Shown: positions 4,242 to 23,200 of the stretch, piece by piece | Layout of the letters: each line of letters opens with the position of its first letter | How positions within the stretch are numbered: the stretch's first letter is position 1 | From: Candidatus Auribacterota bacterium | GTDB taxonomy: Bacteria > Auribacterota > UBA6266 | DNA length: 32,000 nt | Assembly: GCA_023136205.1 (NCBI GenBank) | Contig: JAGLRQ010000064.1 | Coordinates: forward strand, 9,526-41,525 | Direction: 5' to 3' | The notes under the pieces: model-generated | Seen by the model: the letters and a program-made list of their open reading frames with translations, nothing else | Databases searched by the model: none | What the model was told of the DNA's origin: nothing | Program-made: the position numbers and the translations under genes

Positions 4242-4330
4242 AGAAAATAGGGAAAGTCCCAAGCGAGCAAGAAAAATAGGGAAAGTCCCAAGCGAGCGAA
4301 GCGAGTGCGTGGACTGTCCCCATTTTTCTC
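4242..4330. repeat. palindromic repeat family 1, copy 1 (half copy plus full copy)
   Basis: AGAAAATAGGGAAAGTCCCAAGCGAGC (4242-4268) is a duplicated left half. The full unit at 4269-4330 has a left arm GAAAAATAGGGAAAGTCC and right arm GGACTGTCCCCATTTTTC, imperfectly complementary, around a ~22-nt GCGAG-rich loop. Nt 4273-4321 are identical to 5563-5611. Confidence 0.9.
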
Positions 4331-4394: not shown

Positions 4395-5543
4395 ATGTCA
4401 AAATTTAAAAGTTTATTTTTTACGTGCATTATTTGTTTTTTGTTTTTTTCTTCTTTTCTTTTTGCCGATATTCTTTGCGGCAAAACATATCAGCAAACCC
4501 TTCGTGAATATATAACCCGGGCTAAAGGCTCGATTGTGGTTGCGATGTACTTCATTATTCTGGAGCCGGGAGGGGGTGGCCCGATAAATGAACTGGTTGA
4601 TGATCTCGTAGATGCTAAAAAGCGGGGGGTTGATGTCAGGGTGATTTTGGAAGATTCAAAGTTTAAAGAAAATCGCCTTGCTTATCAAAAATTAAAAGAA
4701 AACGGTATTATTGTATATTTTGATACTCCGGAACATCTCTTACATGTAAAGGGTGTTGTTATTGATGACAGGTATGTATTTATAGGTAGTGCCAACTGGT
4801 CAAGGGCGGCGATAGAAGATAATTATGAAGTTACATGTTTTTCGGATTCTTTGGAGGATGGCCTTGCTTTTAAAGAGTATGTTGAGGGGATCCCTTTTCA
4901 GAATAAAGATATGTTTCTGCCTTCAGTTGAAGGTGTTGCTATTTCTTCGGATTTCCTTCTTTTGCCTGAAACAGGCCGCAGGCTTCTTAAAAGCCAGGCT
5001 GTAAAGCAGTTAGATCTTTATTTGCTGTTATTCAGGATACGGCGGGAGAGCGGGGAGGCTGCTTTTGATGTTGATTATGATGTTTTGGCTAAAGCGATGG
5101 GTTATACGGTTCGCGGGAAGTTAGGAAAATACCGTAATCAGCATCATTACTTCTATGAAAGGATACATCGCTTATTGGTGCGTCTCAGGCGCTACGGCCT
5201 TATTGATTATAAGAAAGGGGTAGTTTCTTTAAATACTAAGGATAGCCCATCTATAATAATTCCTTTTGAATACTGGGATTATACCGGGGAGCTTTCCATG
5301 CGGGCAAAGTATATGTATCTGATTTGTCTATACGAAGCCGGCCGTTCCAGCCGGTATCCTTGCTGGTTCCGCAGTCAGAAGGATATGGAAAAACTTTACG
5401 GTATAAGTGATACTACCATTTCTTTGGGATTGCTGGAACTTGAGGAGAAAGGTATAATCGAAGTTTTTAGGGACAAGCTAACTCCTCCTGATTTTTCTGA
5501 TAGGAAAGCTAATGTATATAAAATACTTGGTTTTCCCGGTTAA
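4395..5543 (+). CDS. PLD-superfamily (single HKD, Nuc-like) protein with N-terminal signal/anchor and C-terminal winged-helix-like region
   Basis: N-terminal hydrophobic segment LFFTCIICFLFFSSFLFA. HKD motif H117-V-K119-GVVIDD-RYVFIGSANWS (nt 4743-4802). The C-terminal ~190 aa carry HTH/wing-like segments (YERIHRLLVRLRRYGLIDYKKG; LYGISDTTISLGLLELEEKGIIEV). Confidence 0.75.
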   Translation: MSKFKSLFFTCIICFLFFSSFLFADILCGKTYQQTLREYITRAKGSIVVAMYFIILEPGGGGPINELVDDLVDAKKRGVDVRVILEDSKFKENRLAYQKLKENGIIVYFDTPEHLLHVKGVVIDDRYVFIGSANWSRAAIEDNYEVTCFSDSLEDGLAFKEYVEGIPFQNKDMFLPSVEGVAISSDFLLLPETGRRLLKSQAVKQLDLYLLLFRIRRESGEAAFDVDYDVLAKAMGYTVRGKLGKYRNQHHYFYERIHRLLVRLRRYGLIDYKKGVVSLNTKDSPSIIIPFEYWDYTGELSMRAKYMYLICLYEAGRSSRYPCWFRSQKDMEKLYGISDTTISLGLLELEEKGIIEVFRDKLTPPDFSDRKANVYKILGFPG

Positions 5544-5560: not shown

Positions 5561-5620
5561 AGAAAATAGGGAAAGTCCCAAGCGAGCGAAGCGAGTGCGT
5601 GGACTGTCCCCTTTTTCTTC
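5561..5620. repeat. palindromic repeat family 1, copy 2
   Basis: AGAAAATAGGGAAAGTCCCAAGCGAGCGAAGCGAGTGCGTGGACTGTCCCCTTTTTCTTC begins 18 nt after the PLD gene stop. The stem plus T-run makes it terminator-like. Confidence 0.9.
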
Positions 5621-5968: not shown

Positions 5969-6027
5969 AGAAAATGGGGAAAGTCCCAAGCGAGCGCAGT
6001 GAGCGGGTGGACTGTCCCTTTTTTCTT
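5969..6027. repeat. palindromic repeat family 1, copy 3 (diverged loop)
   Basis: AGAAAATGGGGAAAGTCCCAAGCGAGCGCAGTGAGCGGGTGGACTGTCCCTTTTTTCTT. The arms are conserved and there are 4 substitutions in the loop relative to copy 2. Confidence 0.85.
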
Positions 6028-6107: not shown

Positions 6108-8630
6108 ATGGCAAAAGAAGCAAAAGCTCGTATACGCATAAACAAATATCTTGAAAATGCCGGATGGTGTTTTTTCGATACGGATACCGCCAAGGCTAAT
6201 ATATGCCTTGAAACAAACGTAAAGATTACCGAGCAAGTTCTTACTGATCTTGGTGAAGATTTTGAGAAAACAAAAAATGGATTTACTGATTATATTCTTT
6301 TAGATGATAAAGGATTTCCTTTTGTGGTTTTAGAGGCAAAAAAAGAGGACAAAGATCCTTTAGCCGGAAAAGAACAAGCTCGCAAATATGCCAAAAACCT
6401 TAATGTTCGTTTTGTAATTTTATCTAACGGTAACCTTCATTATTTTTGGGATATTGAAACAGGCAATCCGCATATCATTACCGCTTTCCCTACATATGAA
6501 TCATTAACGTACAAAAAATCTTTCAAGCCTAATCCGGACAATCTAGTCCGTGAGTATATTGATTCAGATTATATTGCCATTACTCAAAAACCAGATTACA
6601 AGAGCGATCCTAATTGGATAGATGAGGATAGAAGAAATGATTTTATTATTGATAATAATCTCAAATTCCTAAGAGATTATCAGATAAACGCTGTTAAATC
6701 TTTGCAAGACGCGGTAAAAGAAAATAAAAATCGATTTCTATTTGAAATGGCAACAGGCACAGGAAAAACGCTTGTTGCAGCAGGTGTAATTAAGTTATTT
6801 TTAAGAACAGGTAATGCAAAAAGGGTGCTTTTTCTTGTTGATAGGTTAGAGTTAGAGGATCAAGCATGGAAAAATTTTGTAAAATACCTTAAAAATGATT
6901 ATAAATCTGTAATTTACAAAGAAAATCGAGGTGATTGGAAAAAAGCTGAAATTGTAGTTTCCACTGTTCAATCATTTCTTTTTAATAACAAGTATAAAGA
7001 TTTATTCTCACCAACTGATTTTGATTTGGTTATATCCGACGAAGCTCATAGGTCGATAGGCGGCAACAGCCGGGCAGTGTTTGAATATTTCACTGGTTAT
7101 AAATTAGGGCTCACCGCAACGCCAAAAGATTATTTAAAAAAGATTGACGAAAAGAAATTAGCTGAGAAAGACCCGCGTAAATTAGAAAGACGTCAGTTGC
7201 TTGATACTTACAAAACCTTTGGATGCGAGGCGAGCAATCCAACATTCAGGTATACTCTTTTGGATGGAGTAAAAGACGATTATCTCGTAAACCCTATTGT
7301 TGTAGATGCCAGAACAGATATAACAACCGAATTGCTTTCAGAAATGGGCTATTCTGTACTAATAGAAAATGAGGAAGGCGAAGAGGAAGAAAAGACTTAT
7401 TTCCAAAAGGATTTTGAACGAAAATTCTACTCAGAAAAGACTAACAGGACATTGTGCCGGACATTTTTAGAAAAAGCACTAAGAGACCCGTTAACTGGCG
7501 AGATTGGCAAAAGTATTATTTTTTGCGTTAGCCAAAATCACGCTTCGAAAATCACACAGATACTTAATGAGCTGGCACATAAGGTTTATCCGGGTAAATA
7601 CAAATCTGATTTTGCGGTGCAAGTAATATCCCATATTGATGGCTCCCAGCAAATGACAATTAACTTTTCAAACAATAATCTAAATGGGCATACAATCTTT
7701 AAGGACGGCTATAATTCCAGCAAGACCCGGGTGTGCGTTACCGTAGGGATGATGACAACAGGTTATGATTGTGAGGATATTTTAAATTTATGCCTAATGC
7801 GTCCTATCTTTTCCCCTCAAAATTTTATTCAGATGAAAGGGCGGGGAACCAGAAAATATGATTTTGTTTATAGCGAAAGAAACGAGCTGGGAAAGATAGA
7901 AAAATATGTGGTTAAAAAGGAGAGGTTTAAACTTTTTGATTTCTTTGCCAATTGCGAATATTTTGAAGAAAAATTTAATTATGATGAAGTTATAGAACTG
8001 CCACCGGAAACCGGAAAAGGGCCGGGGCCGTTTCCCCCGCCGTCACCATCGTATGAATATGAAAATACGCGTCTTGACCCCTTAAAAGAAATTGCCGAGA
8101 CGCCTATAGGTTTTGAAGGCATGAAAATTGACCGGAAGTTTTTTGAGAAGTTTGAAGAAGTTGTTAAAGGTAATGAATATGTTAAAGACAAAATTTATGA
8201 AGGCAAATACGAAGAAGCCGAAAGCTATATAAAAAGAGAAGTTTTTGATAAACCGGAAGAATATTTTAACCTGGATAAATTAAGAAGGTCAGTTAAACTT
8301 GACCGCCGGCTAAGTTTGCGTGAAATATTAGAGAAGATATTTGGACGCATTAAAAAATTTAAAACAAAGGATGATTTGCTCGAAGAAGAAATTGAAAAAT
8401 TTATCTCTCTTTATCATCCCGAAAATAAGTTTATTCATATTATACGCCAGTTTATGAAGGCATATATTTTAGATACCGAGTTGCGGGAAATTTTGAACTC
8501 TAAAGAATATGGCAGGCTTGAAACTAATCCCGGCTTTACAATGAGGGATTTAAAAGAGCTTGATGGGTGGAAAGACCCGGTTGTTGAGTATATAAAAGAT
8601 TATGTGCCATTGAATGCCTTTGCGGCTTAA
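6108..8630 (+). CDS. hsdR: type I restriction enzyme R subunit
   Basis: HsdR-type N-terminus (AKARIRINKYLENAGW) with a PD-(D/E)xK-like core (TDYILLD...VVLEAKKE). SF2 helicase motifs: I MATGTGKT (6747-6770), II DEAH (7038-7049), III GLTATP, VI QMKGRGTR. Long helical C-terminal region as in the EcoEI/EcoAI-type R subunits. Confidence 0.88.
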   Translation: MAKEAKARIRINKYLENAGWCFFDTDTAKANICLETNVKITEQVLTDLGEDFEKTKNGFTDYILLDDKGFPFVVLEAKKEDKDPLAGKEQARKYAKNLNVRFVILSNGNLHYFWDIETGNPHIITAFPTYESLTYKKSFKPNPDNLVREYIDSDYIAITQKPDYKSDPNWIDEDRRNDFIIDNNLKFLRDYQINAVKSLQDAVKENKNRFLFEMATGTGKTLVAAGVIKLFLRTGNAKRVLFLVDRLELEDQAWKNFVKYLKNDYKSVIYKENRGDWKKAEIVVSTVQSFLFNNKYKDLFSPTDFDLVISDEAHRSIGGNSRAVFEYFTGYKLGLTATPKDYLKKIDEKKLAEKDPRKLERRQLLDTYKTFGCEASNPTFRYTLLDGVKDDYLVNPIVVDARTDITTELLSEMGYSVLIENEEGEEEEKTYFQKDFERKFYSEKTNRTLCRTFLEKALRDPLTGEIGKSIIFCVSQNHASKITQILNELAHKVYPGKYKSDFAVQVISHIDGSQQMTINFSNNNLNGHTIFKDGYNSSKTRVCVTVGMMTTGYDCEDILNLCLMRPIFSPQNFIQMKGRGTRKYDFVYSERNELGKIEKYVVKKERFKLFDFFANCEYFEEKFNYDEVIELPPETGKGPGPFPPPSPSYEYENTRLDPLKEIAETPIGFEGMKIDRKFFEKFEEVVKGNEYVKDKIYEGKYEEAESYIKREVFDKPEEYFNLDKLRRSVKLDRRLSLREILEKIFGRIKKFKTKDDLLEEEIEKFISLYHPENKFIHIIRQFMKAYILDTELREILNSKEYGRLETNPGFTMRDLKELDGWKDPVVEYIKDYVPLNAFAA

Positions 8631-8644
8631 AGGAAAATTACGAT

Positions 8645-11044
8645 ATGCTAACCAACGGAACAAAAAGACGCATTGATACAGCAAGGGATATCCTTGTCGG
8701 AAAACTCCCTGACCCCAAGACACAGGTTGAACAGATTACCATAGCTCTTATTTATAAATTTATGGACGATATGGACAAACAGTCTGAGGAATTGGGAGGA
8801 AGACCCAAATTTTTTACCGGTGAATACAAGAAATACTCATGGAGTAAGATTTTCGATCCTCGTGTGAGTGGGCATGAACTTGTTGGTTTATATGGCGAAG
8901 CTGTTCAGCGGATGAATCAGAATCCGAATATCCCGCAGTTATTTAGGGATATTTTTAAAAATGCTTATTTGCCGTATCGTGATCCTGAAACCTTAAAAAG
9001 TTTTCTTAAATGTATTGGCGAGTTTGAATATGACCATAGCGAGAAATTAGGAGATGCCTTTGAGTACCTGCTTTCTGTAATGGGCTCACAAGGCGATGCC
9101 GGACAGTTTAGGACGCCCAGACATATTATTGATTTTATAGTGAAGGTGGTTGACCCAGGAAAAAACGAGACTATTCTTGATCCCGCCTGCGGTACGGCCG
9201 GATTCTTGATTTCTTCGTATAAGCATATCTTAGAAAAAAATAAAAAAGACGGCCGGGTACATTTAACTCCAGCTCAAAAGAAAAGGCTCATTGAAAACTT
9301 TTCAGGTTATGATATTTCGCCGGATATGGTGAGATTGTCATTGGTTAATATGTATCTGCACGGGTTTAAGAATCCCAAAATCTATGAGTATGATACATTA
9401 ACCTCAGAGGAAAAATGGCAGGAAGTATTTGATGTAATATTAGCAAATCCGCCGTTCATGAGCCCAAAAGGCGGGATAAGGCCGCATAAACGGTTTAGTG
9501 TGCAGGCAAAGCGTTCGGAGGTGCTTTTTGTTGATTATATTACTGAGCACTTAAATCCTAACGGCCGGGCGGGCATTATTGTTCCCGAAGGCATTATCTT
9601 TCAGTCAGGCACTGCTTATAAGAAACTGCGCAAGATGTTAGTCGACCGTTCACTTTATGTGGTTGTATCTTTGCCCGCGGGAGTGTTTAACCCTTACTCC
9701 GGAGTTAAGACATCAATATTGATGTTGGATAAAAATTTGGCAAAAAAGACGAATAGGATTTTATTTATAAAAATCAACAATGATGGCTTTGGGTTGGGCG
9801 CACAGAGAAGAGAGGTTAAGGGAAGCGATTTGCCATTGGCTTTAGAAGTAATCACGAGATACAAGCAGAGCATTATTGAAAATAAAGAATTTGAGTTCAG
9901 TTCTGATGAAGCGAAGCTTGCCTCTCTGGTTGAGCAAACAAAAATCGCAGAAAGTGGAGATTATAATCTTAATGGTAATCGGTATTCAGTTTCAGAAATA
10001 ACTACAACAGAATATCCAGTGGTGAAATTAGAGGAAGTGGCGAAGATTATCGCAGGGCAATCGCCAGAAGGAAAATATTATAATTCTAAAAGTAAAGGAA
10101 CTCCTTTTTATCAAGGGAAAACAGATTTTGGGAATATTTATCTTGGCAAACCTAGTAAGTGGACTACACGTGTTACTAAGGTCGCTGTTGCTAATGATAT
10201 TTTGATGTCAGTCAGAGCGCCTGTTGGCCCTGTGAATATTTGTAGCGATAAAATATGTATAGGAAGAGGTCTATCTGCTATTCACGTTGGAGATAGGATT
10301 AATTATAAATATTTATTTTATCTTCTGAAATCTAAAGAAAATGATATTAAAGGCGGTGGTGGTTCTGTCTTTGATAGCATAAGTAGAAAACAGATTGAAA
10401 ATATAAAAATCCCCCTTCCCTCGCTTGAAGTGCAGGAACAGATTATTGCCGAACTGGACAGTTATCAGAAAATAATCGAGGGCGCGTGTCAGGTTGTCGA
10501 AAACTACAAACCGCATATTGATATTAATCCTGATTGGGAAATGGTGGAGTTTAAAAAAGTTTGTAGCTTTGAATATGGAAGTAGTTTACCTTCAAAAAAT
10601 CGAAAAGGCACTAAATATCCAGTTATGGGATCAAATGGTATTGCTGGTTATCATGATGATTATATAGTAAAAGGCCCTGCGATTATTATTGGCCGTAAAG
10701 GGTCAGCCGGAGAAGTTGTATGGGTTGACTCAAATTGTTTTCCAATTGATACAACATATTATGTTGAGCTGAAAGATAAATCATATAGTTTCAAATTTTT
10801 ATATTTCGTTCTACAAGGTCTTAACTTACCACAATTAAAAGGTGGTGCAGGTATCCCTGGCTTAAACAGAAACGATGTATATAGGATATATAAGTTGCCT
10901 TATCCGTCCGTTGATATCCAAAAAAGAATTGTTGCCCAGATCGAAAAAGAACAAAAAGCAGTTGAAGCCACAAAAGATTTAATCACGCTCTTTGAACAAA
11001 AAATAAAACAAAAAATCAGAGAGATTTGGGGTAAAGAAAAATGA
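8645..11044 (+). CDS. hsdM: type I R-M methyltransferase fused to a complete two-TRD specificity subunit (HsdM-HsdS fusion)
   Basis: AAGGAAA lies upstream of the ATG. N-terminal HsdM part: FRTPRHIIDF, motif I LDPACGTAGFL, MYLHG, motif IV NPPF (9446-9457). From ~nt 10007 there are two HsdS-like target-recognition domains (VKLEEVAKIIAGQSP...; VEFKKVCSFEYGSSLP...). Each is followed by a helical conserved region (LPSLEVQEQIIAELDSYQKII; PSVDIQKRIVAQIEKEQKAVEATKDLI). Confidence 0.85.
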   Translation: MLTNGTKRRIDTARDILVGKLPDPKTQVEQITIALIYKFMDDMDKQSEELGGRPKFFTGEYKKYSWSKIFDPRVSGHELVGLYGEAVQRMNQNPNIPQLFRDIFKNAYLPYRDPETLKSFLKCIGEFEYDHSEKLGDAFEYLLSVMGSQGDAGQFRTPRHIIDFIVKVVDPGKNETILDPACGTAGFLISSYKHILEKNKKDGRVHLTPAQKKRLIENFSGYDISPDMVRLSLVNMYLHGFKNPKIYEYDTLTSEEKWQEVFDVILANPPFMSPKGGIRPHKRFSVQAKRSEVLFVDYITEHLNPNGRAGIIVPEGIIFQSGTAYKKLRKMLVDRSLYVVVSLPAGVFNPYSGVKTSILMLDKNLAKKTNRILFIKINNDGFGLGAQRREVKGSDLPLALEVITRYKQSIIENKEFEFSSDEAKLASLVEQTKIAESGDYNLNGNRYSVSEITTTEYPVVKLEEVAKIIAGQSPEGKYYNSKSKGTPFYQGKTDFGNIYLGKPSKWTTRVTKVAVANDILMSVRAPVGPVNICSDKICIGRGLSAIHVGDRINYKYLFYLLKSKENDIKGGGGSVFDSISRKQIENIKIPLPSLEVQEQIIAELDSYQKIIEGACQVVENYKPHIDINPDWEMVEFKKVCSFEYGSSLPSKNRKGTKYPVMGSNGIAGYHDDYIVKGPAIIIGRKGSAGEVVWVDSNCFPIDTTYYVELKDKSYSFKFLYFVLQGLNLPQLKGGAGIPGLNRNDVYRIYKLPYPSVDIQKRIVAQIEKEQKAVEATKDLITLFEQKIKQKIREIWGKEK

Positions 11045-11907
11045 CTACTGAGGAAATAGATCAAAGAATTAAAGGGTTAAGAGATTTAAATTTAAAAAAT
11101 GAAATGTCCAAAGCTATATTTGAAGAGGTCTGGGATTTAATGAAGATTGGATATAAATGTATACACTTCCCGGGCTATCATAAATATGTATATCGAGCCA
11201 GGAAAAATGAAAAAACAAAAAACAAATTTACGTTTTTTAAACATGTAAAGAAAATATGGTGCCGCAATCCTGAGGATGTATTGGATTTTGGACGTGTACA
11301 TTGGCCAAAACATCCTGTTTTTTATTGTAGCGGTTCATTGAAAACTGCAATATTAGAAATAAAGCCGGATTATCACGGCTTAGTTACTGTTATGAGATGT
11401 CGGAGGAAAAACTCGCATAAGATTGAATCTGTTGCTTTCGGATTTCCTGATAGAGCAAAATTTATAGACGGAAAAGGCAAGATAATTAATTGGGGTGAGT
11501 ATAAAGAAGTAAAAATCGGGTTAAGTAAAGGCCAGGCTCAAAAGAATAATAAAATTGATAGATTTTTGAATGAAGTCTATCGGGATGAAGATAAAAATAT
11601 AGACTCGTACGGAGATGATAAATATAAGATTACTGCAGCGATTGCAAAAATGTACTTTGATAATCCTGCTAAGAATTCACATAAACTGGATTGTATATGT
11701 TATCCCAGCGTTAGTGAAGTGAAAGGGGCTACTAATTATGCTTTTACCAAAAGGGTTGCGGATACGATTTTAGAGCCGGACAGTTTTTATGTTTTTGAGA
11801 TATGTCCGGGTGAGAAGTTTGGAAAGTTTGCGCTTAAACTAATTTGTTTTTCTATGAATGTTGATATGACAGGAAAAATTGCGTGGGAAAATATAATTAT
11901 AAAATAA
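11041..11907 (+). CDS. RES-domain protein (putative NAD+-targeting toxin/effector)
   Basis: The start overlaps the hsdM-S stop as ATGA (11041-11044). YVYRAR...FGR(85)VHWPKHPVFYCSGSLKTAILE(106)I...KYKITAAIAK...LDCICYPS(223)VSEVKGATNYAF matches the RES family pattern (lyRa..., GRfn.pg.pvlY.a.s..tAl.E, Y..t..ia...G.dGi.yPSv....g.N.v.f). Confidence 0.6.
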   Translation: MTTEEIDQRIKGLRDLNLKNEMSKAIFEEVWDLMKIGYKCIHFPGYHKYVYRARKNEKTKNKFTFFKHVKKIWCRNPEDVLDFGRVHWPKHPVFYCSGSLKTAILEIKPDYHGLVTVMRCRRKNSHKIESVAFGFPDRAKFIDGKGKIINWGEYKEVKIGLSKGQAQKNNKIDRFLNEVYRDEDKNIDSYGDDKYKITAAIAKMYFDNPAKNSHKLDCICYPSVSEVKGATNYAFTKRVADTILEPDSFYVFEICPGEKFGKFALKLICFSMNVDMTGKIAWENIIIK

Positions 11908-11935
11908 AATTATTATCGAGAAAAGTAGGGATGGT

Positions 11936-11965
11936 TTAACAATCTTAAAATTGGCATTCTTTAAT
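11936..11965 (+). promoter_or_regulatory. candidate sigma70-type promoter for the SIR2-HerA-KTSC unit
   Basis: TTAACA (11936-11941), 18-nt spacer, TTTAAT (11960-11965), in the 133-nt gap upstream of the AAGGAGA RBS and ATG 12041. Pattern match only. Confidence 0.35.
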
Positions 11966-12040
11966 CATCAGGCAGTGAAGCTCATTGAAGCGTGAGTTAT
12001 GTGTAAAAGGGTTATTTAAAGTACATAAGGAGAAAAGTTA

Positions 12041-13237
12041 ATGATAAAATTGAATCTCGTAAGAGAAATCCGAGAACTAAAGAACCAGCTCTCTTATTCG
12101 AAAAAATATAGTTTCTTTTTTGGCGCAGGCACATCATGTGCACTTGGCATTCCTAATATAGCTACTTTAACAACAGAGGTGGAAAAGGCTCTAAAAGATA
12201 ATTCATTAAATTATTTTAAAAAAATAAAAGAAGATCTAACATCTACATACCCCGATAAAATCATAAATATCGAAGATATTCTTAATCAGTTACGCCAAAT
12301 CAGGTCAATCACTGGGGAAAAAGATGATAAAAGTTATCTGGATATAAGTGGAAAATCAGCAACAGAACTTGATAGTGAAATTTGCAAAAAAATATATGCT
12401 GTCATTAGCACCAGTGAAACAACGGCGGATCTTTCTAATACCAAGAAGTTTTTTGCTTGGTTGAATATGCTAAATAGGGATTACTCAAAAGAAATATTTA
12501 CATCAAATTATGATTTAATTATTGAAAAAGCTCTGGAAGAAATAAAAACTCCATACTTTGATGGATTTGTAGGGTCATATGAACCTTTCTTTTGGCAGGA
12601 AAGTATAGAAAGATTCGTTGATAAGTCTGATTTAACACAAAATTGGATCCGGCTATGGAAGGTTCATGGCTCATTAAGCTGGTTCTGGAAAAAAAATAGC
12701 GAATCAGGTTCTCATAATATCATCCGTGTCGGCATAATCTCAGATATTAAAAATATTGATAATGAACTGGTTATCTATCCATCAAAAGAAAAATATGATT
12801 CTTCAAAGAAGCAGCCGTTTGTCGCTTATTTTGATCGATTAAAAAATGTCCTTTTGAAGGGAGAACTCCTTTTTATCTTTACGGGGTATTCATTTTCTGA
12901 CCAGCATATCAATGAGATTGCATTTAATTCTCTTCGACAAAATAATCGATTATTTATTTTAGTGTTTTTTTATCAGGACTCTGAAGTGGAAGAATTATTT
13001 CGAGTATCTTCATCATACCTAAATTTGACAGTATTTGGCCCTACGAAGGCAATTATAAATGGAACATTAGGTGAGTGGGAATATAACGAAGACGATTTAA
13101 AACCAAACGAGAAGTCAGATAGCTATTGGGATACCGAAAATAAGCAATTGATACTCGGGGATTTTAATCAGCTAATTAATTTTCTAATTACAAACTCTGG
13201 GAAAAAAGAAAACATAGAGGCAATAGCAAATGGATAG
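12041..13237 (+). CDS. SIR2-family (SIR2_2-type) NADase component of a SIR2-HerA defence system
   Basis: Strong RBS AAGGAGA. FFFG(28)AG(30)TSCALGIP dinucleotide-binding motif, TSN(156)YD(158)LIIE, KVH(209)GS(211). Size (398 aa) and pairing with HerA are typical of this system. Confidence 0.85.
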   Translation: MIKLNLVREIRELKNQLSYSKKYSFFFGAGTSCALGIPNIATLTTEVEKALKDNSLNYFKKIKEDLTSTYPDKIINIEDILNQLRQIRSITGEKDDKSYLDISGKSATELDSEICKKIYAVISTSETTADLSNTKKFFAWLNMLNRDYSKEIFTSNYDLIIEKALEEIKTPYFDGFVGSYEPFFWQESIERFVDKSDLTQNWIRLWKVHGSLSWFWKKNSESGSHNIIRVGIISDIKNIDNELVIYPSKEKYDSSKKQPFVAYFDRLKNVLLKGELLFIFTGYSFSDQHINEIAFNSLRQNNRLFILVFFYQDSEVEELFRVSSSYLNLTVFGPTKAIINGTLGEWEYNEDDLKPNEKSDSYWDTENKQLILGDFNQLINFLITNSGKKENIEAIANG

Positions 13238-15014
13238 TGACATTACCTACCTTGGGAAAATAATACGGGTTGATTCGAGTACTGTTGAAGTTGAAGTTTC
13301 AGATGATATCCCTTCCGCTGCACCAATTATAAACGGTCGTTTATATAAAATTGGACAAATTGGTACTTTTGTAAAAATGCCAATGGGAAATATTACAACC
13401 TATGGAATAGTATCTTCTGTTAGCAATACTCCAGGGAAACCAGATGACAATCAGGCTAGGCAGATTTTTGGATCACGTTTTCTTAGCGTTCAGCTTGTCG
13501 GTGAAAAAATTGGGGATGATGATTTTGAGAAAGGCATAGGGACGTACCCTACTATTAATGATGCAGTTCATATTGTAGTTGAAAAGGACTTGTTTAATAT
13601 ATATGGGGAAAAAGATACTGGCTCTATAGAAATAGGAAAGCACTCCTCTTCTGATAATTTATCTGTATGTGTAGATATTCATAAACTCATATTGCGTCAT
13701 TGCGCGATATTAGGTTCTACTGGAAGTGGAAAATCAAATACAACTGTTAGTATTCTTAAGGCAATATTAAACAATTATCTTGGTTCAAGAGTTATTTTAG
13801 TTGATCCACACGGTGAATATGCTTCAGCATTTCCAGATGCGAAAGTTTATAAAATCAATGATTCTTCCGATCCGTTGTATATTCCTTTTTGGTTGATGAA
13901 TTTTGATGAATTGGCATTTTTTCTTGTCGGAGCTAAACCAACTGATGATCAAAGGCCAGAGTATCGATTATTAAGGGAATGGATAACGGGTTATAAAAAA
14001 GAAAATTATCAACTCAAATCAGGTGATGTAAATCGAGACTTTATTACTGCCGATTCGCCAATTCCTTTTAATGCTAGAAAACTTTGGCATGACATGAACT
14101 GGTGGCTGAATGCTACTTTCTCAGAATCTACAAAAGACAAACAAACAAAAGATAATGCGCAATTACAGAAGGATGAAGATGGCAATCCCAAGAATGGTAA
14201 TTATGACGAATTAAGACAAGCAGAATTTAAACCCTATCCAATGGGGAGTAATGCACCATATAAATCAAAACACCAAGATTTTTATTCATATGAAAAAAAG
14301 CTTCTATCACGGCTCAAAGATTCTCGGTTTGATTTTATGTTTCATCCTGGAGATTACAAAGATAAATCTTCCTTGAAGGATTTGCATAATTTGTTAAATG
14401 ACTGGATAGGAAGTGATAGTAAATTGGTAATACTTGACCTTGGCGGAATCCCATTTGAGGTTTTAGATATTGCAATCGGACTAATTACAAGATTTGTGTA
14501 TGACAGTATGTTTTGGGGGCGGAATGAATCTTACACGGGAAGAAATAGACCTCTTTTGCTTGCTTATGAAGAAGCTCACACTTATTTGAACAAGAATGAT
14601 AATAACAGTTATTCAAAAAACGCGGTTGAACGAATTTTTAAAGAAGGTCGTAAATTTGGTGTTGGTGCGTTAGTTATATCGCAAAGACCTTCTGAAATTT
14701 CAGAAACCATTCTGGCTCAAATTGGAACATTCATAGCTTTGCGATTAACAAATTCAGGAGATCAGTCTATTGTTAAATCTTCATCACCTGACAATCTAAA
14801 TAGCTTGATCGATTTATTACCTTCTTTGAGAATTGGTGAGGCCGTTATTGTTGGTGAAGCGATCAAAATACCTTCTAGAATTAGAGTAAAACTTAATAAT
14901 CCAAGACCAACGAGTGATGACCCTAAACTTATAGAGTGCTGGAGTAAAACACATTCCACCTCTGATGATAAGTACAAATCGGTAGTAACCAAAATAAGAG
15001 AACAAAGGAGATAA
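13230..15014 (+). CDS. herA: HerA-type hexameric ATPase/helicase of the SIR2-HerA system
   Basis: 8-nt overlap with the SIR2 gene (ATGGATAG). N-terminal HAS-barrel-like segment (GKIIRVDSSTVEVEV...IGQIGTFVKM...YGIVSSV). Walker A GSTGSGKS (aa 162-169), Walker B-like RPLLLAYEEAH, and RKFGVGALVISQRPSE. Confidence 0.88.
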   Translation: MDSDITYLGKIIRVDSSTVEVEVSDDIPSAAPIINGRLYKIGQIGTFVKMPMGNITTYGIVSSVSNTPGKPDDNQARQIFGSRFLSVQLVGEKIGDDDFEKGIGTYPTINDAVHIVVEKDLFNIYGEKDTGSIEIGKHSSSDNLSVCVDIHKLILRHCAILGSTGSGKSNTTVSILKAILNNYLGSRVILVDPHGEYASAFPDAKVYKINDSSDPLYIPFWLMNFDELAFFLVGAKPTDDQRPEYRLLREWITGYKKENYQLKSGDVNRDFITADSPIPFNARKLWHDMNWWLNATFSESTKDKQTKDNAQLQKDEDGNPKNGNYDELRQAEFKPYPMGSNAPYKSKHQDFYSYEKKLLSRLKDSRFDFMFHPGDYKDKSSLKDLHNLLNDWIGSDSKLVILDLGGIPFEVLDIAIGLITRFVYDSMFWGRNESYTGRNRPLLLAYEEAHTYLNKNDNNSYSKNAVERIFKEGRKFGVGALVISQRPSEISETILAQIGTFIALRLTNSGDQSIVKSSSPDNLNSLIDLLPSLRIGEAVIVGEAIKIPSRIRVKLNNPRPTSDDPKLIECWSKTHSTSDDKYKSVVTKIREQRR

Positions 15015-15229: not shown

Positions 15230-15492
15230 AAAGACATAAGGCACTACACCTGACCGCTATTCCGCTATGCTCATAGCGGCGGATGAGTTTGGTTAGGTGG
15301 ATAGTTGGGGATAAGTACATTGTGTTTATCCTGTTAATATAGAGTAATAAGAACATTTGATTTATACATGAATTGGTAAACATATAAAATGGATGACCTT
15401 AGAAAACAAGAGGGAGTTAAGCCCAGCTGCACAAACCAGTGCTACAGTTTGCCACACACTTGTTTAGTCCATCTATCAGGATTATAATAACG

Positions 15493-15957
15493 ATGACACA
15501 AGAAATGACAGAACTCAAAATATTCTTTGATTTGCCAAAGACTTTTGAGATACAGAACATTAAGCCCCTTATGGGGCTGACGGGATTGTATTTTATTTTC
15601 AATGGAAAGACAAAAATTCAATATCCTTTCAAGAAATCGCGACTGCTATACATTGGAATGAGCGAGAAAAAAACAAACAGCATAGGGAGCCGTCTAGCAG
15701 GTCATTTTGAAGGAAAAAGTAAAAACGTTGGAATTGTCAACTATAGAAAAACTAAACAGTTGTTTTTTACCTACATCAATTTCGAGATGCTTCGCAAATT
15801 CTGGAACCACAGAATAGAAGACCTTGAAAGCTACTTCATTCTGGACTTTGTTGAGAAGTACGGAGTTTATCCCATTTGTAACAATAAGTCTGGTTACGAA
15901 ATATTGAACAAAAAACTAAACGCCAATTTTATTATAGATTGGTTATATTTTGAATAA
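15493..15957 (+). CDS. stand-alone GIY-YIG nuclease-domain protein
   Basis: Counting from ATG 15493: G31-L-Y33, Y53-I-G55, R67 (SRLAGH71), E112 (DLESYFILDF) and N130 (YPICNN) reproduce the order of GIY-YIG catalytic residues. The ORF track's longer version starts at GTG 15439, so the start is uncertain. Confidence 0.7.
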   Translation: MTQEMTELKIFFDLPKTFEIQNIKPLMGLTGLYFIFNGKTKIQYPFKKSRLLYIGMSEKKTNSIGSRLAGHFEGKSKNVGIVNYRKTKQLFFTYINFEMLRKFWNHRIEDLESYFILDFVEKYGVYPICNNKSGYEILNKKLNANFIIDWLYFE

Positions 15958-15968
15958 ACACTTAAGTT

Positions 15969-16178
15969 ATGAATAAAAAAATAAAAAGTGGTAAAGATGT
16001 CATTGATGAGTTCTTCTCAGAAATTCTAAATATAGAAGACGTTGACCAAAAGACAGTGGAAAAGCTGGTTGAATTGTATAAAGAGAATAACCTAACTGAC
16101 AGAAAGATTCAGAACGCATTAGAGGAACTGAAACAAGCAGAACTTAATTCAAAAGCGCGAAACGATGGCAAAGATTAA
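15969..16178 (+). CDS. 69-aa acidic helical protein, unknown function (possible middle component)
   Basis: 11 nt downstream of the GIY-YIG gene, and its 3' end overlaps the ATPase gene by 14 nt. The sequence is predicted all-helical by eye (DEFFSEILNIEDVDQKTVEKLVELYKENNLTDRKIQNALEELKQAEL). I recognise no family. Confidence 0.55.
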   Translation: MNKKIKSGKDVIDEFFSEILNIEDVDQKTVEKLVELYKENNLTDRKIQNALEELKQAELNSKARNDGKD

Positions 16179-18573
16179 ATCAATCAATATAAGCGGAATA
16201 AGAGGTGTTAAAGACCTTTTGACACTTGACATCAACAAGAAATCCATTTTGATTTATGGCGACAATGGAACAGGAAAGAGTTCTCTGACTGATGCCTTTG
16301 AATGGTTATTTTACGATCGTATTGGTCATTTATCCAATGAAGAAATTGGAAGAAAAGGTCGAGACGCCTTAAGAAACATTTTCGTTCCAGGCAATGAAGA
16401 TGGTTATATCGAAATCAAGTTTGATAATAACAAACTGGACATAAAAAAGTCAATCGACAGTTCGATAAGTGCTTCTACTTCTAACATATCAGATGAATTC
16501 AATGACTTTATTGCCGCCTCACAATCCGAAAATCTTATTCTTCGCTACCGTGACTTAGTGCAATTTATTATTGCGAGCAAAACCGAGAAACTAACAAAAC
16601 TGCAAAACATTATTGGCTTTTCAGAGGTCGCTGATGTCAGGAGCTTACTGAAGAAGAATGCCGGACGAATTGCCCGCAATATCAAATCTTCTAATTATGA
16701 CAACCAAAAGAATGTGAAGCAATCAATAATACTTGAAAACCTTGGGAGAAATGCCCATTCAGATGAGCAACTTTTTGAAGGAGCGAATGAACTCATTAAG
16801 CCATTGAAGCTTGGTATCGAAATTAAATCTCGTGAGGATATAAAGAAAGTTTTAAAGAAAATTGAGACCAAAGAGGACAACGCTTTACTTGAACAAATCA
16901 ACTTTTTCACAAGAATGTGGGAGGTCTTATCAGAAGTTGTTGGAAATGTTGACAATATTCATGAAAGCTACAAATCATATCACACCATTGGCAAAGAGTT
17001 GAAAAAAGACCCAGAGAAGATTAAGAAATTGCAGCTGCTTGCTCTTTTGAAAGAAGGCCAGTCAGTTCTTAAGAATGATGTTGTGCAGGACAACTATTGC
17101 CCACTTTGTCAACAAGAAAAGAGCAAGGTTCAACTAATTCAAGAGTTGAACAAAAGAATTGAGGAATTGGAACAACTTGCTGAAGAGAAGAACAAATTAG
17201 ATGAGCAGGCAGAAGAACTTGAACAATTGATTCAGCCAAACATTAACATGATAGACAGTTTGCTAAGGGAGAAGCTATTTAAGAAGGATAAATACGAAAA
17301 ATTGAAAAGTCAGATTGCAGAAGTCAAGAAATCATTAAACAGCTTTCTTTATGAGCTTAAAAAAGGTTTATCGGTTGCTTTTGCAGAGCCAGGCAAAATC
17401 AAGATTGATAAAAACGAATTTTATATAATTGTCAAGCAATCACAAGATACCGCAAAAATTCTTACGGAAAATCAATCATCAAACATAAAGTTCCAGATTT
17501 ATACTAAGTTGTCCCAAGCGGTAACTGCTTATGAAGAATATCAAAGAATAGAAAAAGAGCAAGGCATCCTAAGCAGGCAGCAAGTTACGTTTGAAGGGCT
17601 TTATGCTGATTTCATAAAAAGACAAGAAGAAGCCCTCAACGTATTCCTGACAATGTTCTCTCAAGACATCGATGACTATTATACAACTATGAACCCCAAC
17701 GAGAGAGTTGAGGACATAAAACTTGTGCCAATCAAAAAAGATGGTGATTTGGTAGGAATTACTATTGAATGCAGCTTTTTTGATGAGGCTAAAACTTTTC
17801 CAATTGCTTATTTGAGCGAAAGTCATCTCAATTGTCTTGGACTTTCGTTCTTTTTAGCTTCTGTCAAAGCATTTAACAAGGAGAACGAATTTTTCATATT
17901 GGATGATATTATATCCAGTTATGACAGGTCTCACCGAGCAAGATTTGCTAAGCTGTTGACCGAAAAATTCTCTGACTACCAAGTTATTCTTTTAACCCAT
18001 GAACAAGAGTTCTTTGAACTGGTGTCCAGTGATGTAAAGAACAAAGGATGGTCAATTAAGAATTTCAAGTGGACAAAAAATAGTGGTGCAGGTGTAGAAA
18101 AAGGAACGGTTAAAATCAAAGAACGAATTCTTAAGAAATTTAAAGAGAAGAATATAGATGGTCTTGGTAATGATATCAGAGTTTATACGGAGAAGGTTAT
18201 GAAAGAAGTCGCATTTAATATAGAAGCCCCTGTAGCATTCCGATATAATGCACTTAATGAGAAGCGAATGGCCCCAGAATTATTGAATGCTGTTCAAAGT
18301 CGAATTTCAAAAAAAGGAAATGGGCTAAAAGAGAAGGCCAACATTACAAGGGTGAAAGGTATGCCTATGTTCATTGGAAATACGACTTCTCACGACAACG
18401 AATTCAATGAGAGTATTGAGGACTTGGAAGTGATGTGGGAAAATATTGAGAACATGATCCGCACATTTTACTGTAACAGTTGTAGGAAGTTTATGTCAGT
18501 TAAGTATTTCGACAATGTAGAGAGTAAAATCAGGTGTGGATGTGGTAATCTGACCTATGATTGGGAAAAATGA
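16165..18573 (+). CDS. SMC/Rad50-like ABC ATPase with CxxC zinc hook and PrrC/RloC-like C-terminal domain (AAA_13/RloC-like or LmuB-like)
   Basis: Walker A GDNGTGKSS (aa 32-40). Roughly 400 aa of heptad-rich helix with C312-P-L-C315 (nt 17098-17109) in the middle. ABC-signature-like LSESHLNCLGLSFFLA, Walker B FFILDD (D580, D581; DDIISSYD resembles the AAA_13 DDPisSLD), H-loop VILLTHE. The C-terminal domain has R672-x3-E676, H743, and C770-x2-C773...C791-x-C793. Confidence 0.8.
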   Translation: MAKIKSINISGIRGVKDLLTLDINKKSILIYGDNGTGKSSLTDAFEWLFYDRIGHLSNEEIGRKGRDALRNIFVPGNEDGYIEIKFDNNKLDIKKSIDSSISASTSNISDEFNDFIAASQSENLILRYRDLVQFIIASKTEKLTKLQNIIGFSEVADVRSLLKKNAGRIARNIKSSNYDNQKNVKQSIILENLGRNAHSDEQLFEGANELIKPLKLGIEIKSREDIKKVLKKIETKEDNALLEQINFFTRMWEVLSEVVGNVDNIHESYKSYHTIGKELKKDPEKIKKLQLLALLKEGQSVLKNDVVQDNYCPLCQQEKSKVQLIQELNKRIEELEQLAEEKNKLDEQAEELEQLIQPNINMIDSLLREKLFKKDKYEKLKSQIAEVKKSLNSFLYELKKGLSVAFAEPGKIKIDKNEFYIIVKQSQDTAKILTENQSSNIKFQIYTKLSQAVTAYEEYQRIEKEQGILSRQQVTFEGLYADFIKRQEEALNVFLTMFSQDIDDYYTTMNPNERVEDIKLVPIKKDGDLVGITIECSFFDEAKTFPIAYLSESHLNCLGLSFFLASVKAFNKENEFFILDDIISSYDRSHRARFAKLLTEKFSDYQVILLTHEQEFFELVSSDVKNKGWSIKNFKWTKNSGAGVEKGTVKIKERILKKFKEKNIDGLGNDIRVYTEKVMKEVAFNIEAPVAFRYNALNEKRMAPELLNAVQSRISKKGNGLKEKANITRVKGMPMFIGNTTSHDNEFNESIEDLEVMWENIENMIRTFYCNSCRKFMSVKYFDNVESKIRCGCGNLTYDWEK

Positions 18574-20243: not shown

Positions 20244-23200
20244 ATGCAAAAAACAAAAAGCATAATTTCAGTCTTTATACTTTCTTTTATATCTCTAATC
20301 CTAAACTCCTCAGCAGTTTTGGCAGTTGATGTTGATATGGAAGCAGGCACTACTGCCACTTATACTTTAACGGTTAAAAACATTGGTATTGTTCCTATGA
20401 CCGATATAGGGGGAGAAGCTTCCATAGTAAGTTTAGGCCAACACGGCAAATTTTCCATCAAAAAGGGCAAATTTTCCATTTCTTCGATTTCTGAGGGAAA
20501 TGAAGCTATTGTGAAATTTCAAGTTACAGCGCCTCCCCAGCCCGATCCGGAAAATCCTATAATTATGAAGGGTGAAGCAACTTTTACTATAACAAAGGTA
20601 AAAGATCAAGACGGCAAGAAAGCTCCTTTTATTTGTACTGATGGGAAAGATACAATTAGCGCTGATCCGACGTTTATCCAACGTACAAGAAAAGCTATTA
20701 TTACCGCAGGTGGCGGTAGCCCAATAAATTCATATAACAAGTATTATAATTATCCGCTGCCTCAAGAAATTTCTGTTAATCCATCTTTACCAAATGATAT
20801 TTCCATATATTATATGTACCGGTTTACATCTTTCGATATGGAAGCGCAGATTACAATATCTGAAGGATCCTTGTCGGAAGATACTGTGATAGCCATAAAT
20901 AATACAGATAAATCAAATATTGAGATCCAGTTAGTCAAAGCCCAATATGACACTGAGCTATCGGCCTATAATCAGGGGATTAAATCCGAAGTTAATACTT
21001 CTATCAACATTGATACCCAGTCCTATATAAATGAAGCAGTAACAAGAGGTATGGATGAACAGACTGTTACGGATTACATTAACAATACCATTTCAACTGC
21101 TCAAAATAATCTAAATACTGCAATTGATAATTTGATTAATACCACCCACAACACATTACTTCCAGCTTTAGAACCTGTTAATGTCCAGATAAGCAGTAAG
21201 GTAGGCGCAGTTATTAATGATGTCATTGTTAAAGAAAATCAGTTTATCAGAGATAGAGAAGATGCTATTCAAAAAGCCCAAGTGGAAAACAATATAGATG
21301 ATTTAGCCGCACAACTTGAAGCTAACGGCGCCTCAGAGGAAATTATTAATCAAATCCAAGAGGAAGCAGAAGAAAAAGCCGAATCCCAATCAGCTATAGC
21401 TATAAGCCTCTTGGAAGCCTCTAAATTTAACGATATAAAAACACTTCACGATGATGGAAATCTTTTTATCCAAAACTTAATCTTTGACACTAATAAAACT
21501 GTTACTTCGAAAAATAATACTTTAAGACAGCAAATTCTTGATGGAAAAGACAATTCTCAATCCAATGCTGAAAAGGATATTATCACCTATATCAGAGGTA
21601 TTACCGATACTGTTTTATCCATAGCACAGATTAGTTTTCCCGTCGAAGCTCAAAGTATATCAGATGCCGTTAATTTTAGCGGTACGGCCTCTGATGAAAA
21701 TATAAAGGAATATACCTTAAGTTATTTTGATGGCGCCAACTGGAATATTGTCAATAACTCCATTACTTCAGTTACTAACTCCGCATTGGGCATCTGGAAT
21801 ACTAATACTGTAGCTAATGGTAACTATCCTGTTAGGCTAAGGGTAGTAGATACTGCTGGCAATGTAAGCAAGGCTACTATTAATGTAACGGTTAACAATC
21901 AGGACTTAACTGTACCGGTTATTACCATAGCTTCTCCGGCCTCGGGGGAAGAATCGGCCGGTGTTATAACTATCAATGGTTCTATCACCGAGAACTATTT
22001 ATCCAGTTACATAGTAGAATACTTCACAGAAGAAGAACCTGAAAACTGGATCCAGATAGGCAGCACTCATAAAGTGATTGATTCCTCAGGCATCTTAGCT
22101 TCTTTCAGCCCATTATTATTATCTAAAGGCAATCATACCCTTAGAATAACTGCTACCGACACAAGCAATAATTCCTCAAACCAGACGATAACTGTAAATA
22201 CTGGTCACAAATTCAACAACACAGGCGGGCAGCTCTATGCCGCTAACACCTTAGCAGATGACAGGAGGTTAGAATTTGCCTATAAATCATTTGATTTTAA
22301 GCCCAATAATCTAATGCTTAATCAACCCGCAGTCATTAAACTTCACTACACAGATGAGGAACTCAGTGACCGCGGTTATGAAGAAAATTTATTAAACATC
22401 TTTTTGTATGATGAAGAAACTTTTACATGGGAGGTAATCTCAACGCAAATTGATTTTGAAAACAATGTTCTAACGGCCAACATAAATAAATTAGGTGTTT
22501 ACGCTATAAAAGAAGACAAGCCGGATCTGGTTGATGTTGTTTTACCAAGCGCCGAAATTACTAATTCTGCTTATAACTCTTCTACCGGTATGATTGATAT
22601 AACCGGCACAGCTAATGACGAAAACTTAGAGTCCTATGTAGTAGAATACGGAGAGGGAGACATTCCTTATTATTGGATTAGAGTAGAAAATTCACCTAAA
22701 ATAATTATCAACAGCGTGCTGGCTGCTTTTGAGGCAAAGAATCTACTGCCTGGCAGTTACTCTGTAAGATTAACTGTTTACGACCAGGCGGAAAACAGTT
22801 CTCAAGCTGTCTCAAGCTTTATTGTTGGAGAAGATAAGATTATCAATCTATACACTTCATCTGACTATATTGCCCCTGAAGTAACCTCGGAAGATGTTCC
22901 CAAGGAAGTAACTATAACCTATCAAATTTTACAGGATACTTATAGCACGGTTAAAATTAAAGATGGTGATGCCAATGTGATTACTTTATTAGACAATCAA
23001 TTTCAAACTACCGGGATTCAACAAGTAGTCTGGGATGGGAAAGATGTAAATAACCAATTTGTCTCAGCTAAAACCTATACCATTGAAATAAGTACATCTG
23101 CAGGTACACAATTAACCACGCCCATAGAGGTAAAAGATTTAATTGCTAAAATATCTGTCCCCTATGAAAACTCTCTTGTCAGGGGCTCGGTACCTGTTTT

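Follow-up and report, generated by a model that had tools for sequence, protein, structure and literature searches.

A RES-domain gene translationally coupled to a type I restriction–modification operon in a Candidatus Auribacterota defence island

PrrC has been demonstrated to be gated by a restriction–modification (R-M) complex and set off by Stp, and characterised members of the RES clade destroy NAD+ by hydrolysis or phosphorolysis. The locus described here brings a RES-domain gene into the same operon as a type I R-M enzyme. It lies in a stretch of 32,000 nucleotides (nt) from Candidatus Auribacterota bacterium (GenBank assembly GCA_023136205.1, contig JAGLRQ010000064.1, positions 9,526 to 41,525 of the forward strand), the whole of which is called the window below, and consists of hsdR, an hsdM-hsdS fusion (hsdMS) and, as the third cistron, an open reading frame (ORF) for a RES-domain protein at positions 11041-11907.

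The embedding of toxin domains in R-M loci was generalised in 2013 from PrrC to at least 16 clades of HEPN proteins and to DOC and RhuM (PMC3710099), and a review of 2025 terms PrrC and PARIS "RM guardian systems" (PMC12707154). The RES toxins of RES-Xre modules degrade NAD+ (PMC9503650, PMC11535050); in the RES clade of the ADP-ribosyltransferase superfamily, Y and N stand in for the S and E of the R-S-E enzymes (PMC9503650). A preprint of January 2026 described aRES, stand-alone RES proteins that are found in defence islands without an antitoxin, convert NAD+ to nicotinamide and ADPR-1''P on infection, and are defined by the combination of PF08808 with PF18870 (HEPN/RES-NTD1) and by a length of 300-600 amino acids (aa) (bioRxiv 10.64898/2026.01.28.702374).

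The RES protein and its family

The three-gene module and the parts of its third gene are laid out as follows.

6108..8630, plus strand: hsdR, first cistron, restriction subunit of 840 aa (Pfam HSDR_N/HSDR_N_2, ResIII at 2e-39, and Helicase_C; PADLOC REase_I at 2.1e-61).
8645..11044, plus strand: hsdM-hsdS fusion, second cistron, 799 aa, a methyltransferase with two target-recognition domains (TRDs) (Pfam N6_Mtase, E=3.7e-55, and Methylase_S, 1.7e-36 in two stretches; PADLOC MTase_I, 6.4e-97, and Specificity_I).
11041..11044, plus strand: start/stop overlap ATGA between hsdMS and the RES gene, read from the sequence; translational coupling.
11041-11907, plus strand: RES-domain protein gene, third cistron, 288 aa, ATG start (Pfam RES, AlphaFold2, Foldseek).
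11041..11181, plus strand: N-terminal helical hairpin, about aa 1-47, with model helices at 3-14 and 23-37, kept across the whole family of about 285 aa.
11194..11358, plus strand: N-terminal RES motifs YRAR (R52, R54), GR-x-N (R85, N87), FYCS (Y95) and A-I-L-E (E106), from the 71-sequence alignment.
11398..11610, plus strand: family-specific insertion, about aa 120-190, separating the E motif from the S motif and made of β-hairpins and a long helix, from the secondary structure of the model.
11701..11736, plus strand: C-terminal RES motifs Y221-P222-S223 and N232, from the 71-sequence alignment.
11908..12040, no strand: non-coding spacer of 133 nt, the 3' limit of the three-gene module, with no ORF of at least 30 aa and no Rfam match.

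The ORF at 11041-11907 encodes a RES-domain protein from a large family that is uncharacterised and whose members measure about 285 aa. A preliminary description, made from the letters of the window, had assigned it a RES domain with an R85/E106/S223 pattern. Pfam RES (PF08808) matches the protein at E=2.7e-7 with 31.2 bits, above the gathering cut-off of 23.2, in agreement with that assignment. The match is split into two stretches, one of which covers residues 84-109; in the relatives, Pfam RES spans about 155-195 aa of protein for 116-140 profile positions. Close homologues are few, with only seven recovered by a word-indexed search of 5.8 billion proteins. A narrow profile made from a 7-sequence alignment (the ORF and its six nearest homologues) and scored against 1.84 billion cluster representatives matched 1212 clusters (at 50% identity) at E<=1e-3, of which 261 reach E<=1e-10, almost all of them full-length and mostly 260-320 aa. 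An individual RES match is present in 68 of the 71 family members that were aligned, and a homologous-protein search with this 71-sequence alignment returned 23 proteins only, adding little.

In the alignment, R52, R85, Y95 and E106 are invariant, and R54, N87, Y195, Y221, S223 and N232 are kept in at least 90% of the sequences. The pattern proposed earlier is therefore real, and the ORF possesses the R, E and S of the domain name as well as the Tyr and Asn typical of the RES clade. The RES core opens with the YRAR strand, and an insertion of about 70 residues separates its E and S motifs. The N-terminal hairpin that precedes it has no match in Pfam by hmmscan, PF18870 included.

An AlphaFold2 model based on the 71-sequence alignment reached pLDDT 93 and pTM 0.90, superseding a model from the 7-sequence alignment that was unusable (pLDDT 35). 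The sole specific PDB matches of the model, found with Foldseek, are the RES toxins NatT (8qnl_C, probability 0.97, TM 0.41/0.46) and ParT (6d0i_C, TM 0.31/0.52), both with modest scores. A Foldseek comparison with viral structures returned only uncharacterised giant-virus proteins, and no PADLOC or NCBIfam model matches the ORF.

The operon junction in three lineages

The ATG of the RES ORF overlaps the TGA of hsdMS by four nucleotides, as ATGA, so that the start on this overlap, already pointed out in the preliminary description, can be read directly in the sequence. The order hsdR (841 aa)-hsdMS (823-834 aa)-RES is shared by the sister loci L001 and L002-L005, which lie on long contigs and encode RES homologues 70-72% identical to that of the window. 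In L001 hsdMS and the RES gene overlap by 11 nt, and in L002 they are set 2 nt apart; the junction sequences thus differ among the three lineages, and all are within coupling distance. Synonymous sites are saturated among the three loci (pS 0.59-0.76), which indicates that these are old lineages. The downstream flanks differ as well: SIR2-HerA in the window, RadC followed by an nSTAND NTPase, FRG and UvrD in L001, and RadC with a TrlF-like ATPase in L002. The operonic coupling to type I R-M that had been proposed from the window is therefore kept in three diverged lineages.

The components of the operon have changed at unequal rates. HsdR of the window is 90-93% identical to that of L001 and L002 and the HsdM part about 95%, and the TRDs, at only 10-22% identity, have been swapped. 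The RES proteins are 70-77% identical across the three lineages and evolve about three times faster than HsdR or HsdM; with pN of 0.13-0.17 versus pS of 0.60-0.65, their dN/dS of about 0.1-0.14 indicates purifying selection. This ratio, together with the invariant motifs, rules out a pseudogene or chance ORF.

Further genes accompany the module in its sister loci. At its end, the RES gene of L001 and of L002 overlaps a RadC/JAB-domain gene (10843-11559 and 8119-8916, respectively), giving the order hsdR-hsdMS-RES-radC, and the window has lost this radC gene or never had it. The PLD-HTH gene found upstream of hsdR in the window occupies the same position in L002 and L003 (858-2042) and may be another conserved neighbour of the module. 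The window has no counterpart of the 57-aa HTH_17 gene that immediately precedes hsdR in L002.

RES toxins of the RES-Xre type are encoded next to a gene, usually upstream of theirs and overlapping it, for an Xre/DUF2384 antitoxin, which the preliminary description had reported as missing here. Its absence was confirmed on both strands around the RES gene. No Xre/DUF2384-like ORF adjoins it, the upstream neighbour being hsdMS, and no plausible ORF of at least 30 aa was found near it on either strand, where only short, low-complexity ORFs overlap. The window contains no Rfam match, and no repeat array is present near the RES gene. A hidden antitoxin is ruled out by this lack of a credible ORF on both strands, of an Rfam family and of a repeat array nearby. 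L001 and L002 are likewise without an Xre/DUF2384 antitoxin.

The third-cistron slot, family contexts and the defence island

The position occupied by the RES gene was compared across 80 metagenome loci (L024-L103) that encode the HsdM proteins closest to that of the window (8645-9994), at 68-95% identity. Nearly all of them consist of hsdR and a fused hsdMS, and a RES-family gene lies downstream of hsdMS in none of the 80. With the slot defined as holding a same-strand ORF that starts between -25 and +30 nt from the hsdMS stop, it is filled in 34 of the approximately 58 loci with enough downstream DNA. The commonest occupant, in 14-15 loci, is a HEPN protein of about 245 aa with an RNxxAHxNG motif. 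Overlap of the third gene with the hsdMS stop is frequent. Others are the R-M-associated domains DUF3644 and DUF4145, SIR2 (L093, and L084 with an ATGA-type overlap), TIR (L072, again with an ATGA-type overlap), a protein kinase (L077), an AAA_13 ATPase of the PrrC/RloC type (L069), an OLD-family nuclease, UvrD, GmrSD and a PD-(D/E)XK protein. At slightly wider spacing after hsdMS, a KAP NTPase and a reverse transcriptase are found, and RadC follows hsdMS directly in one more of the 80 loci. One "occupant" is a nitrogenase-family gene, that is, the edge of an island. The occupant varies even where the HsdM proteins are 81-83% identical. Most of the close-HsdM operons with enough downstream DNA carry another coupled third gene, and none carries RES there. 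In this R-M family the third-cistron position is therefore hypervariable, and RES fills it only rarely.

In one locus, L060 (530-2339), a 310-aa ORF with a weak Apea-like HEPN match is overlapped at its end by a distant RES-family gene, some 2 kb ahead of an operon that belongs to this hsdR-hsdMS family. RES is found close to this R-M type here for a second time, independently, and outside the downstream slot.

The wider family was followed through 12 independent look-ups of distant relatives (20-42% identity), which do not amount to a broad neighbourhood census; neither hsd genes nor DUF2384 were found near RES in any of the 12. A 42%-identical RES-family protein is encoded 15 nt after a Ser/Thr kinase of 412 aa in a two-gene operon (L008, 322-2426), which may be a kinase-RES system, and in a Candidatus Omnitrophota metagenome-assembled genome (L012) the RES relative follows a HEAT-repeat protein beside conjugation genes. 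A comparison of the upstream partners of these clade-B relatives, the kinase and the HEAT-repeat protein, found no homology between them. At 20-35% identity, RES relatives are monocistronic in Tn7-like cargo (L104), solitary (L022), or on their own beside ToxN on a Listeria plasmid (L014). Elsewhere they follow a 1952-aa Cap4-nuclease STAND NTPase (L020), a MORC-like HD-CE/HATPase_c_3 protein with a 541-aa ORF (L015), or an HTH protein with a 162-aa protein (L013), or precede ORFs of unknown function (L016, L018). The arrangements in L015 (2448-7915) and L020 (933-7882) suggest that the RES protein of about 285 aa has been reused as an effector in several multi-gene systems. A tblastn search against plasmids found only three near-identical Listeria plasmids, and one against phages found nothing. 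Linkage to R-M is confined to one clade, that of the window, L001 and L002-L005.

These surveys divide several statements of the preliminary description. It had placed the RES gene in the position of a restriction-linked ORF, and in sister operons the same slot indeed holds HEPN and PrrC-like AAA_13 proteins, although the linkage of RES itself occurs in one clade only. A survey of homologues for linkage to hsd genes, which it had proposed, reveals enrichment within that small clade and none beyond it, either in the 12 distant contexts or in the 80 close-HsdM loci. Its assertion that an NAD+-targeting line behind restriction would be a new pairing holds narrowly. No published report joining a RES domain, type I restriction and a toxin was found; taken more broadly, the assertion has to yield to the TIR and SIR2 NAD+ consumers in the same slot and to the generalisation of R-M-embedded toxins in 2013.

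The module belongs to a defence island on the plus strand, at 4.4-18.6 kb of the window, with adjoining housekeeping genes (purA, CsgG-type lipoproteins and outer-membrane β-barrels). The order within the island is PLD-HTH, hsdR, the hsdM-hsdS fusion, the RES ORF, SIR2-HerA, a weak GIY-YIG-like ORF and an SMC/ABC-type ATPase. Its remaining features, and the gene beyond it, are listed here.

4300-4326, 5561-5619 and 5969-6027: intergenic repeat in three copies, around the PLD gene and upstream of hsdR.
4395-5543, plus strand: PLD-HTH protein gene, whose product joins a PLD-family nuclease to a C-terminal HTH and is hydrophobic at its N-terminus.
12041-15014, plus strand: SIR2-HerA pair (PADLOC SIR2 at 3.5e-129, HerA at 5.9e-155), a complete, known and separate system.
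15439-15957, plus strand: ORF of 172 aa with a weak GIY-YIG match, followed by the SMC/ABC-type ATPase.
16165-18573, plus strand: SMC/ABC-type ATPase of 802 aa with a Cys-rich C-terminus, LmuB-like in PADLOC (5e-26).
20244-29132: giant ORF of 2962 aa with PKD/Ig-like, CBM30, CBM11 and F5/8 type C domains.

SIR2-HerA, beginning 133 nt past the RES gene, is a second NAD+-depleting system next to the putative one of RES. The GIY-YIG-like ORF and the SMC/ABC-type ATPase may constitute another two-gene defence system. The end of the island is marked by the giant ORF, whose product probably binds glycans or acts as a surface adhesin. Two copies of the intergenic repeat, with 90% identity between them, measure about 59 nt, and the third has a 27-nt core in common with these two. 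An inverted GGGAAAGTCC/GGACTGTCCC pair lies within the repeat, which is REP- or terminator-like in appearance. The results of a scan for promoters and terminators did not rise above those expected from shuffled sequence and are uninformative on operon boundaries.

Explanations for the coupling and comparison with known systems

To read the RES protein, in general terms, as a restriction-linked second-line effector is reasonable. The specific explanation that we favour, with confidence evenly balanced between acceptance and doubt, is that it forms an autonomous, co-expressed, NAD+-depleting second layer behind restriction. In this lineage, an hsdR-hsdMS operon has captured a RES gene, which is now its third cistron and translationally coupled. 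On this explanation, the RES protein would be made together with the R-M enzyme while being catalytically latent by itself, in the manner of aRES. A phage that got past restriction would provide an infection cue that activates the RES protein, and the active protein would deplete NAD+ and arrest the infected cell. Restriction would thus be layer one and NAD+ depletion layer two, coupled at the level of co-expression and co-inheritance, and the R-M complex need not inhibit RES. We infer the NADase activity, the latency, the trigger and the defence role of the protein. The missing antitoxin calls for no guard by the R-M enzyme, since the RES family is commonly stand-alone and aRES is self-latent; as an account of the absence, an inhibitory R-M complex is not needed.

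Several observations weigh against this explanation. The likeness to solved RES toxins exists only at the level of profile and fold, with Foldseek E-values of about 1e-2 and TM scores of 0.41-0.52, and searches of PDB by sequence and by profile, from both the 7- and the 71-sequence alignments, retrieved no RES toxin chain and only noise. Since sequence profiles reach no solved RES toxin, the window protein represents a remote subfamily. ParT, itself a RES protein, ADP-ribosylates a protein and does not deplete NAD+, which leaves the chemistry of the window protein unsettled. PF18870 was not detected in the protein or in its first 60 aa (hmmscan, E<=1), nor in the 71 relatives (E<=0.01), although the authors of aRES used hhsearch and the present scan used hmmscan, so that a very remote kinship of the 47-aa hairpin to PF18870 is possible. 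Without this domain, the mechanism of aRES is carried over by analogy only. Finally, a junction that stays tight through saturated synonymous divergence could mean more than co-expression, which would favour a guard.

Such a guard, of the PrrC kind, would operate through the binding of RES by HsdR/HsdMS, which would keep it inactive until a phage anti-restriction protein (Ocr, ArdA or a Stp-like peptide) freed it to deplete NAD+. We regard this as rather unlikely, even though it accounts for a good deal: gene order and a tight junction are kept in three saturated lineages with different flanks, no antitoxin gene is present, and the approximately threefold faster evolution of RES relative to HsdR and HsdM is as expected under arms-race pressure. 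The slot in sister operons also holds classes for which gating by R-M has been proposed or shown, namely HEPN and PrrC/RloC-like AAA_13 proteins (PMC3710099), and the stand-alone relatives of RES are compatible with a guard, given that PrrC too has such relatives in RloC (PMC3710099, PMC12707154). Against it, members of the R-M-linked clade match their stand-alone relatives in length and architecture and bear no extra docking domain; the pairing occurs in none of the 80 close hsdM relatives and none of the 12 distant RES contexts; and aRES demonstrates that self-imposed latency is possible for RES proteins. The slot holds self-sufficient systems as well (GmrSD, an OLD-type nuclease, SIR2, a reverse transcriptase) and may therefore be a mere insertion hotspot; the mixture of its occupants fits a hotspot for insertion and co-expression as well as it fits a docking platform.

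The protein might instead be a macromolecule-directed ADP-ribosyltransferase, similar to ParT or DarT, that modifies a protein or nucleic acid of the host or of a phage, or possibly the R-M enzyme itself as a means of tuning restriction. ParT, which acts on Prs, is among the only specific structural matches, RES belongs to the ADP-ribosyltransferase superfamily (PMC9503650), and the 70-residue insertion and N-terminal hairpin could bind a substrate. The top structural match, NatT, is however an NADase, most characterised RES proteins (P. putida Res, MbcT, NatT and aRES) consume NAD+ (PMC9503650, PMC11535050, bioRxiv 10.64898/2026.01.28.702374), and the present data point to no target, which makes this alternative improbable. 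It is more improbable still that the gene is a passenger or addiction gene, a selfish toxin-like cassette in a recombination hotspot 3' of hsdMS that would have no defence role or would serve only to stabilise the island. The exchange of occupants between operons with HsdM 81-83% identical, the nitrogenase-family "occupant" at an island edge, and the presence of the RES family on plasmids, conjugative elements and Tn7-like cargo are consistent with such a cassette. Against it, the gene is under strong purifying selection and has been kept in three lineages whose synonymous sites are saturated, the junction is held at coupling distance in three sequence forms, and a toxin lacking an antitoxin cannot serve as a classical addiction module.

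A bolder extension of the guard would take hsdR-hsdMS as a modular platform of "guarded restriction", in which the R-M complex is the common sensor and inhibitor of interchangeable effectors (HEPN, TIR, SIR2, RES, kinase, PrrC-like); HsdMS/HsdR would hold RES inactive, and an anti-restriction protein would free it to destroy NAD+. We consider this unlikely; if it is true, restriction systems would have a first guard that acts by depleting NAD+. The arrangement of the locus is a variation on known layered phage defence and involves no new principle. If the RES protein is active, it would be a third NAD+-consuming chemistry wired to restriction enzymes, after TIR and SIR2 in the same slot, and antitoxin-less RES defence would reach beyond proteins built like aRES, to a large and unstudied family (about 285 aa, approximately 1200 clusters at 50% identity). 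The main value of the locus is comparative, as it draws attention to a hypervariable, translationally coupled third cistron in one type I R-M family with fused hsdMS. The hsdR-hsdMS-X operons provide a natural panel for distinguishing effectors that are gated by the R-M complex, following the PrrC paradigm, from those that are merely co-expressed with it, a question that dates from the 2013 catalogue of R-M-embedded toxins.

Among the systems described to date, the RES-Xre modules (P. putida Res-Xre, MbcTA, ParST, NatRT) share with the window protein the Pfam domain, the R/Y/E/S/N residues and the fold. They differ in possessing the upstream Xre/DUF2384 gene that the window lacks and in encoding proteins about 100 aa shorter, without the hairpin and insertion, and the window protein has no sequence-level match to any solved RES toxin. 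PrrC of EcoprrI is a latent cell-damaging enzyme encoded in a type I R-M operon, as the RES protein is predicted to be, and both have stand-alone relatives (RloC in the case of PrrC, most of the family in the case of RES). PrrC is, however, an ABC-ATPase joined to a HEPN anticodon nuclease that cuts tRNA and is encoded between hsdS and hsdR of a type IC locus, whereas the window protein is a RES enzyme of ADP-ribosyltransferase fold, without the ABC-ATPase/HEPN architecture, and its gene comes last in the operon, at the 3' side of a fused hsdMS. The R-M-embedded HEPN, DOC and RhuM proteins similarly place a toxin domain in a conserved neighbourhood with R-M genes, an arrangement that has been read as multi-pronged defence (PMC3710099); the HEPN proteins aim at RNA, whereas RES chemistry would be aimed at NAD+. 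With aRES, the window protein has in common the RES domain, the lack of an antitoxin gene, a location in a defence island beside R-M and other systems, a wider family that is often monocistronic, and an expected outcome of NAD+ depletion and arrested growth. It differs in its length of 288 aa and in having a hairpin of only about 47 aa and no PF18870, and its gene is translationally coupled to hsdMS, whereas aRES genes are described as not operonic. The window protein thus falls outside aRES in the strict sense; by analogy, it most plausibly works like aRES.

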